Made by a program: the position numbers and the translations under genes. A stretch of 15,268 nt of DNA, taken from UHGV virus genome UHGV-0136483, one strand, 5' to 3'. Under the pieces are notes generated by a model. That model ran no database searches. It was not told the origin of the DNA and was given only the letters and a program-made list of their open reading frames with translations. Of the stretch, positions 5,928-6,252 are shown piece after piece. The stretch is from a virus. The stretch's first letter is position 1, and the number at the start of each line of letters is the position of its first letter.

Positions 5928-5943
5928 ATGGTGTCCCCTGCAG
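5928..5943 (-). other. Candidate attachment-site core: 16-mer CTGCAGGGGACACCAT on the minus strand, resembling the 3-prime end of a tRNA (T-stem 3-prime strand + acceptor + CCA)
   Basis: Reverse complement of atggtgtcccctgcag. It ends in ...ACACCA like a tRNA 3-prime terminus and matches my recollection of the argW 3-prime end and the KplE1/Sf6-type att core. It sits in the 263-bp gap between the xis stop and the int start. Confidence 0.45.
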
Positions 5944-6016
5944 ACATCTACTTGAGGCGGCAGGGGATTGATTGGAATGGTGTTTTTTAGATGTGAGAAA
6001 TATTTTACCCGCTATT

Positions 6017-6217
6017 TTACCCATTGGCGCGGCTTAAGAGCTTATTTTTGAATTCACAATGGTCACGATATAACCATCTTGCTCGCCCGTGGATAACTTT
6101 GGCTTTTGGCAAGTCGCCGGACTTAATACGGTCGTAGATGAAGGTTTTACCAAAGCCAGTATCGGCCATGATGAATTTCAAATCAACCAGTGAATCAGGC
6201 TGTAGTTCGTGTTGCAT
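6017..6217 (-). CDS. xis: Excisionase / recombination directionality factor (TorI/AlpA-like small HTH protein), 66 aa
   Basis: 66-aa basic protein (MQHELQPDSLVDLKFIMADTGFGKTFIYDRIKSGDLPKAKVIHGRARWLYRDHCEFKNKLL...) immediately upstream of int on the same strand. GGAGA lies 8 nt before the ATG at 6217. Size and position are typical of a prophage Xis; the sequence recalls TorI of KplE1, from memory. Confidence 0.7.
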   Translation of the reverse strand: MQHELQPDSLVDLKFIMADTGFGKTFIYDRIKSGDLPKAKVIHGRARWLYRDHCEFKNKLLSRANG

Positions 6218-6236
6218 GAGTGCTATCTCCGAATAG

Positions 6237-6252
6237 GGAATCGAACCTGCAA
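6237..6252 (-). other. tRNA T-arm-like 16-mer TTGCAGGTTCGATTCC (T-stem 5-prime strand + T-loop), not part of a complete tRNA
   Basis: Contains the canonical T-loop GGTTCGATTCC. Its GCAGG would pair with the CCTGC formed where this segment meets the 5928-5943 segment, so the two pieces behave like adjacent halves of one tRNA 3-prime region separated by about 290 bp. No upstream D-arm or anticodon arm is present. Confidence 0.35.

Follow-up and report, generated by a model that had tools for sequence, protein, structure and literature searches.

On the minus strand of the viral DNA analyzed here (UHGV virus genome UHGV-0136483; 15,268 nt, referred to as the window), an xis gene, a candidate attachment core and an integrase gene follow each other directly, and two 16-mers that read like parts of a tRNA 3' half flank xis. 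The initial annotation had reasoned that integration at this core should carry int and xis to opposite prophage ends, which is correct for the module in question, since its attP lies between the two genes; their contiguity was taken to suggest an unrecombined attP of excised or episomal DNA, a tandem junction or a prophage integrated through a different site. The locus therefore raises the question of which element, or elements, the xis gene (torI), the core and the integrase gene belong to. As set out below, the seam is very probably a hybrid of a phage attR and the attL of a genomic island, resulting from tandem integration of two different elements at the tRNA-Arg gene argW. Contiguity of xis, att core and int alone does not point to an attP or to an episomal state; where tRNA genes act as hot spots, as argW does, this order usually marks the place at which two different integrated elements meet, and prophage boundaries should be drawn with this in mind. 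The features of the window are compiled in Table 1.

Table 1. Coordinates and assignment of features in the window, listed in the direction of the minus strand.
Feature	Position	Strand	Basis or remark
Early-left region of P22-like (Lederbergvirus-type) prophage	6275..15268	-	from repressor/cro region to orf55
orf55, 55-aa lambda-p35-like ORF	6442..6275	-	
Intrinsic terminator hairpin	6266..6285	-	follows orf55, immediately 5' of T-loop box
T-arm fragment ('T-loop box', 16-mer 1), TTGCAGGTTCGATTCC	6237..6252	-	argW nt 46-61; torI leader
torI/xis, recombination directionality factor (RDF) of P22-like prophage	6017..6217	-	Sf6 gp18 identity, named homologues
P arm of phage att site	5944..6040	-	97.5-97.8% identity to UTI89 attR and Sf6 attP; starts at position of primer attR-IHF2 within torI 3' end, ends at core
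16-nt core (16-mer 2), CTGCAGGGGACACCAT, where phage DNA meets island DNA	5928..5943	-	argW nt 61-75 + T
Core-proximal arm of resident argW island, attL side	5754..5927	-	5' of island integrase gene
Island integrase, P4-type tyrosine recombinase, 396 aa	4563..5753	-	Pfam Arm-DNA-bind_3, Phage_int_M, Phage_integrase
Island cargo	1..4562	.	collinear with ATCC 8739 at 99.93% identity
IS3-family fragment with IS1222-type frameshift element	~4042-4416	+	Rfam/family matches
Weak AbiH-like gene	3855..2806	-	family match
NsnA/GmrSD_N-like gene	2806..1778	-	family match
SngC-like fragment, C-terminal	442-948		family match

Two argW fragments on either side of torI

Each of the two 16-mers occurs once in the window, even if up to three mismatches are permitted, and both are exact matches to argW, a gene of 75 nt in E. 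coli ATCC 8739. Inside argW they adjoin and share one C, whereas in the window they lie 309 nt apart in the same orientation, with the 66-aa xis/torI ORF between them and the integrase ORF 3' of the second. Exact argW 16-mers are expected by chance at an estimated frequency of about 4 x 10^-4 per 15 kb, counting both strands, so that two co-oriented matches in tRNA order exclude coincidence. The initial annotation was thus right in stating that two pieces of a tRNA 3' half flank xis. The checks proposed along with it, a tRNA search and a search for more core copies or an intact tRNA-Arg gene, came back empty: ARAGORN (0 genes) and Rfam (E <= 10) detected no tRNA gene in the window, and neither an intact tRNA-Arg gene nor an extra copy of either 16-mer was found within it. 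For fragments of only 16 nt, blank results with ARAGORN and Rfam are expected and uninformative. What the window holds is two such fragments and no detectable cloverleaf that would qualify as a tRNA gene or pseudogene.

The region upstream of torI belongs to a P22-like prophage. It is transcribed toward torI and gives mosaic matches to the UTI89, CUS-3, Sf6 and O26 prophages, in which LexA-family repressor, Ral, CIII, Kil, ERF and anti-RecBCD functions are annotated.

Parentage of the two sides of the core

TorI of the window is identical to Sf6 gp18 in 66 of 66 amino acids, the latter annotated as 'response regulator inhibitor TorI'. When compared with 50,697 phage records, the xis side (about 6496..5925) showed 97-98% identity to Sf6, HK620, HF4s, Kapi1, N7 and CUS-3-like phages, and these matches ended 0-4 nt past the core, most of them at 5925, i.e., 3 nt past it. 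Pairwise comparisons gave the same limit: positions 6496..5927 are 97.5% identical to the prophage end in UTI89, the simple case in which torI and the core are followed by dsdC, and positions 6326..5925 match the left half of Sf6 attP at 97.8% identity, with homology stopping 1-3 nt beyond the core in both instances. The earlier assignment of the second 16-mer as the argW-derived core of KplE1/Sf6-type phages is confirmed by the Sf6 record, which labels the identical 16 nt as attP core, and by the description of this sequence as the duplicated 16-nt core that borders KplE1 (Panis 2010, PMC2951348). Beyond the core, Sf6 continues with TTTATCAGTTCGCC... (P' arm) and then intS, the window with TTTACACCTCTCC... 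instead.

Measured against the module of KplE1 (CPS-53), HK620, Sf6, CUS-3 and Kapi1, the window has the TorI-type RDF gene, the same core, the same T-arm box and, between torI and core, a P arm of 97-98% identity, but the five-TorI-site P' arm, the intS promoter and intS itself are absent beside its core, their position being taken by the arm and integrase of another element. In the Sf6, Mixta and Cedecea modules, the P' arm has kept 2 + 3 GTTCG-type motifs, corresponding to the five TorI sites; direct reading of positions 5754-5927 in comparison with known P' arms revealed no TorI-type motif of the GTTCG, GATCG or GTCCG kind. A P arm and core followed by non-phage DNA is the configuration of a prophage attR, whereas an attP would present the P' arm with its 2 + 3 sites and the intS promoter after the core. 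The cognate intS is expected at the other prophage end. In lambda, which likewise encodes a tyrosine integrase and an RDF and shares orf55 (lambda p35-like) and the upstream terminator at 95% identity, the layout is different: attP has int and xis as neighbours on one side, so that the two stay together in the prophage, unlike the KplE1-type genes with attP between them.

Two minor features of this att region may be mentioned. The attR core of UTI89 (locus L003, ~12277-12291) is one G shorter than the canonical 16-mer (CTGCAGGGACACCAT). An inverted repeat, CCCCTGC...~16 nt...GCAGGGG, extends from the P arm into the beginning of the core (5944-5975) and has been retained by most diverged lineages. 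It may be linked to the integrase or to a host factor.

On the other side, positions 5943..1 align with E. coli ATCC 8739 over 5,943 nt at 99.93% identity, from the first core base inside argW onward. In this strain, argW is directly followed by the same arm and integrase, the IS3 fragment, the AbiH-like ORF and a DUF262 (NsnA-like) ORF, all collinear with the window; the difference is what comes before the core, namely the first 60 nt of argW in ATCC 8739 and phage torI and P arm in the window. The integrase of the window is 100% identical to the argW-adjacent integrase of ATCC 8739 and 48% identical to Sf6 IntS, and relatives above 60% identity were lacking among the 50,697 phage-collection records, which speaks against the former pairing of this int with xis. 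The arm (5754..5927) is 100% identical to the sequence following argW in ATCC 8739 and in at least 20 other complete genomes. With a synthetic query that joined argW to the window arm, full-length matches were obtained in all 25 complete genomes among the matches listed, 21 of them at 100% identity; coverage of at least 80% was reached in 279 genomes, a number that may include tandem junctions, as these would reach 81% coverage. The ATCC 8739 island measures roughly 55 kb, carries iol, fec and CP4-type genes and no phage genes, and terminates with ATTCCTGCAGGGGACACCA, in which 19 nt of this argW segment are repeated, indicating that phage and island target the same site. The core of the window is followed by island arm and integrase, reading away from the tRNA, just as in an attL of this island, but an intact tRNA 5' portion does not precede it. 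Nucleotides 1-60 of argW are replaced by phage DNA, which fits the middle site of a tandem array.

The cargo carried by the island appears to be defence-related as judged from family matches, the NsnA/PD-T4-2_A/GmrSD_N-like gene overlapping the weak AbiH-like gene. Directly downstream of the island integrase, a ribosomal frameshift element of the IS1222/IS3 type (strong Rfam match of 98.5 bits, 4300-4416, plus strand) sits inside a shortened IS3-family transposase remnant. As a side observation, the sequence GATACCCTTCAAAC(C/G)AAATCTACC follows the island terminal repeat in ATCC 8739 (locus L008, 32505-32560) and also the majority of E. coli torI-core ends. This sequence is similar to the arm that adjoins the core in the island-integrase family, and it could be what an even older element at argW left behind.

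Probable tandem integration at argW and competing readings

Nineteen nucleotides, 5943..5925, are common to both parents, phage and island, and sequence comparison places the crossover within this shared stretch, inside the core. According to the tandem model, which we hold to be very probable, a P22-like prophage with a module of the KplE1/Sf6/HK620/CUS-3 type would have integrated at argW when this site was already occupied by a genomic island encoding a P4-type integrase of its own. IntS-mediated integration at the 16-nt core would leave intS beside argW at the distal end of the prophage, which lies beyond the window, while the near end would keep torI, P arm and core and would now be followed by the former argW neighbours, island arm and island integrase. 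The predicted array reads argW - core - intS ... phage ... torI - core - island int ... island. With phage and island inserted as neighbours at argW, torI and the adjacent integrase belong to different elements. The parentage of each junction side, the breakpoint in the core and both parental configurations were seen directly, as was the full array in finished genomes; that the island came first and the phage second is what we infer, and the middle site would presumably still act as the attR at which IntS and TorI excise the phage. Residual doubt stems from the window stopping short of the other prophage end, so that argW - core - intS lies outside view for this genome, and from the finding that no complete E. 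coli genome covered at least 80% of the whole window. The 'tandem junction' considered in the initial annotation is thereby retained in that tandem elements do meet here, but they are a phage and an island rather than two copies of one phage.

The same arrangement recurs in other genomes. A 701-nt query comprising the torI-core-int junction was covered to at least 80% in 67 complete E. coli genomes. In O26:H11 strain 11368, with 96.3% identity over the 701 nt, the whole array can be read in the order yfdC - argW - intS - tailspike ... P22-like prophage ... torI - core - island integrase - island; this strain differs from the window in its cargo and in its island integrase gene, a pseudogene interrupted by a stop codon, whereas the integrase of the window is intact. 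Among the 47 E. coli torI loci in IMG/VR that were readable past the core, three had the Sf6-type (attP-type) P' arm and one the K-12-type chromosomal flank; the remaining ones adjoin other arms, 29 of which carry GATACCCTTCAAAC..., the sequence also found after the terminal repeat of the ATCC 8739 island. The low share of loci with the Sf6-type P' arm (3/47) implies that heterologous junctions are the rule at argW. Variability of the argW-dsdCXA region was reportedly described by Moritz and Welch in 2006. A phage attR/island attL seam at argW is thus an ordinary, already documented kind of locus, and the argW-dsdC interval has been termed a recombination hot spot (PMC9659370).

A different origin of the seam would be a recombinant phage that swapped intS for the island integrase, making torI - core - int a genuine new attP. 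Such an exchange is conceivable inasmuch as both integrases are P4-type enzymes, 48% identical, that use the same argW segment, and mosaicism at this boundary is common among phages. We nevertheless regard it as very unlikely: this integrase appears in none of the 50,697 phage records, the IS3 fragment and the defence-type cargo are identical to those in the island of a strain without an argW prophage, and O26:H11 pairs the same junction with intS at the other prophage end. Still less credible is the reading favored by the initial annotation, an unrecombined attP in a phage genome that is excised, episomal or contained in virions, since, despite the like order xis - attP core - int in free Sf6, HK620 and Kapi1, the arm right of the core and the integrase differ from those of the phage module, the conserved P' arm is missing, Sf6 homology ends 3 nt past the core, and the 5.9 kb beyond it are collinear with a chromosomal island devoid of phage genes.

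The T-loop box in the torI leader

The first 16-mer might itself be regarded as the real attachment core, in which case the prophage would end upstream of torI. The CUS-3 record (CP000711.1, 1745-1760) indeed ends exactly there and labels it 'attR core', and its sequence repeats argW nt 46-61 exactly and in direct orientation. This reading is nonetheless barely tenable. UTI89, with its CUS-3-like prophage, runs through torI to the true core beside dsdC, and KplE1 is bordered by the second 16-mer. A 135-bp attR that starts inside the torI 3' end, and thus leaves the first 16-mer outside, suffices for excision in vitro (PMC3509656). A crossover at the first 16-mer would have joined argW nt 1-61 to CTATTCGGAGATAGC..torI; this argW(5') - 16-mer - torI joint was found in 0 of 5,426 complete genomes, and the torI leader starts to be identical to argW exactly at nt 46. 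The CUS-3 GenBank record, which omits torI and the true core, looks like a case of boundary mis-annotation and provides an example of an upstream tRNA-like 16-mer being mistaken for an att core. The T-loop box is a separate feature of the torI leader and not a crossover site.

The box is found at the same place, 309 nt 5' of the core, in Sf6, the CUS-3 record, UTI89, O26 and K-12 KplE1, and an exact copy was present in 74 of the 79 IMG/VR loci that were scored. Being fixed in the leaders of Sf6, CUS-3, UTI89 and KplE1, it was not created in this genome. To follow it over larger distances, torI modules encoding TorI proteins 68-85% identical to that of the window were gathered from other genera; searching IMG/VR with the TorI alignment gave only loci whose TorI is 100% identical to that of the window, and the diverged modules were obtained from a genome-contig scan and contig look-ups. 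The block (C)AGGTTCGATT(C/T)C was present in 11 lineages, namely Enterobacter, Citrobacter, Serratia, two of Pantoea, Edwardsiella, Hafnia, Cedecea, Atlantibacter, one MAG and E. coli. It starts 29-30 nt 5' of the torI ATG (36 nt in Serratia), and its flanks differ between lineages on both sides. Within it, GGTTCGATT was invariant in all 13 aligned leaders representing these 11 lineages; its conservation exceeds that of the Shine-Dalgarno sequence. In torI, by contrast, invariance was limited to 14% of the third-codon columns (nine lineages), and the longest invariant run measured 7 nt, shorter than GGTTCGATT, although this comparison of invariant columns is a rough estimate. Eight torI lineages are devoid of the box, at least three of them (Dryocola, Klebsiella, Rahnella) having little or no intergenic leader. 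Base pairing of the T-arm hairpin (CAGG/CCTG) is preserved in no more than 3-4 lineages.

In diverged lineages, the P arm reads (A/G)TTCGATGT(A/T)TGCAGGGGAC just before the core and includes the T-loop GTTCGAT in register with argW, which means that the module holds two overlapping partial copies of a tRNA 3' half. Of the idea that a single tRNA 3' half had been split by the RDF gene, the two argW pieces therefore stand, but not the split. Homology of the ancestral attP to argW probably began in the T-loop, similar to the 19-nt repeat of the island. As to the origin of the duplicate copies, it would be plausible that an old tandem array of unlike elements at argW lost an internal segment. E. 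coli E10 offers an example of the array-internal type of deletion proposed here: at locus L004 (12594-12630), a 293-bp deletion joins CTATTCGG, which directly follows the box, to the latter half of the core (GACACCAT), thereby removing torI and half of the core and fusing a prophage remnant to the island. Element seams of this kind give rise to new mosaics, with the E10 deletion welding prophage to island. The E10 junction was also considered as a fused contiguous tRNA 3' half, in line with its spacing, but the sequence proved to be that of a plain 293-bp deletion. A scan of IMG/VR with the 30-mer TTGCAGGTTCGATTCCTGCAGGGGACACCA for phages with an unsplit tRNA 3' half in attP yielded, among the matches that could be judged, only full-length argW at prophage attL.

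The invariance of GGTTCGATT across 11 diverged lineages gives the box the appearance of a selected sequence. We consider it an evenly balanced proposition, argued from conservation, that (C)AGGTTCGATT(C/T)C is a selected cis-element that was co-opted to control TorI expression or intasome assembly. Several modes of action can be envisaged. The box could be a putative TorI binding site, as it holds the GTTCG motif of TorI sites, the motif that was mutated to abolish the TorI sites in attL (PMC2951348). It could alternatively be a putative integrase binding site, as it equals the left flank of attB, or a putative RNA element pairing with the torI Shine-Dalgarno sequence. A second TTCG-type half-site lies 12-13 nt downstream of the box in about 5 of the 11 lineages, a spacing that does not match the ~10 or 20 nt between TorI sites in the P' arm. 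A putative hairpin between box and Shine-Dalgarno region recurs in predicted folds, with z-scores of about 0, a consensus energy of -2.4 kcal/mol and a single compensatory pair, values that do not support the structure.

With regard to transcription, the box is located 12 nt past the T-run of the intrinsic terminator and ~20-35 nt 5' of the torI ATG, and most E. coli loci have the same or an analogous terminator ahead of it. A terminator at this position would fit transcription into torI by antitermination or read-through. A promoter scan predicted no sigma-70 promoter at the box, and the 'pI promoter' annotated there in Sf6 has poor hexamers. Rho has reportedly been linked to torI silencing by Menouni and colleagues in 2013. 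The box could bear on the control of RDF expression, which has been proposed as the master control of excision in the KplE1-type family. The torI promoter itself has been described as uncharacterised, and RDF control as the main switch for excision (PMC2951348). For probing the element, CCAAGCTAA is proposed as the mutant replacement for GGTTCGATT.

As an alternative to a selected element, the box might be a neutral scar, a tRNA fragment left behind by an old rearrangement and devoid of present function. Its location at the left edge of the conserved module, in what is annotated in Sf6 as a mosaic 'boundary sequence', would be in line with this view, as would its dispensability for excision in vitro, its absence from eight torI lineages and the fact that the leader RNA folds are no stabler than shuffled controls. 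A scar of this kind would however hardly be expected to remain invariant over the length of GGTTCGATT in 13 leaders from 11 lineages while torI has retained few invariant third-codon positions and no invariant run of that length, and while the bases adjoining GGTTCGATT vary on both sides, so that we rate neutrality as rather improbable. Apart from the cis-element proposed for this leader, an Rfam match to the sRNA STnc130 was noted at 6167-6294 on the plus strand, antisense to the torI 5' end and the box, with 32 bits against a gathering score of 55; it is probably a chance match, driven mostly by the bidirectional terminator hairpin.
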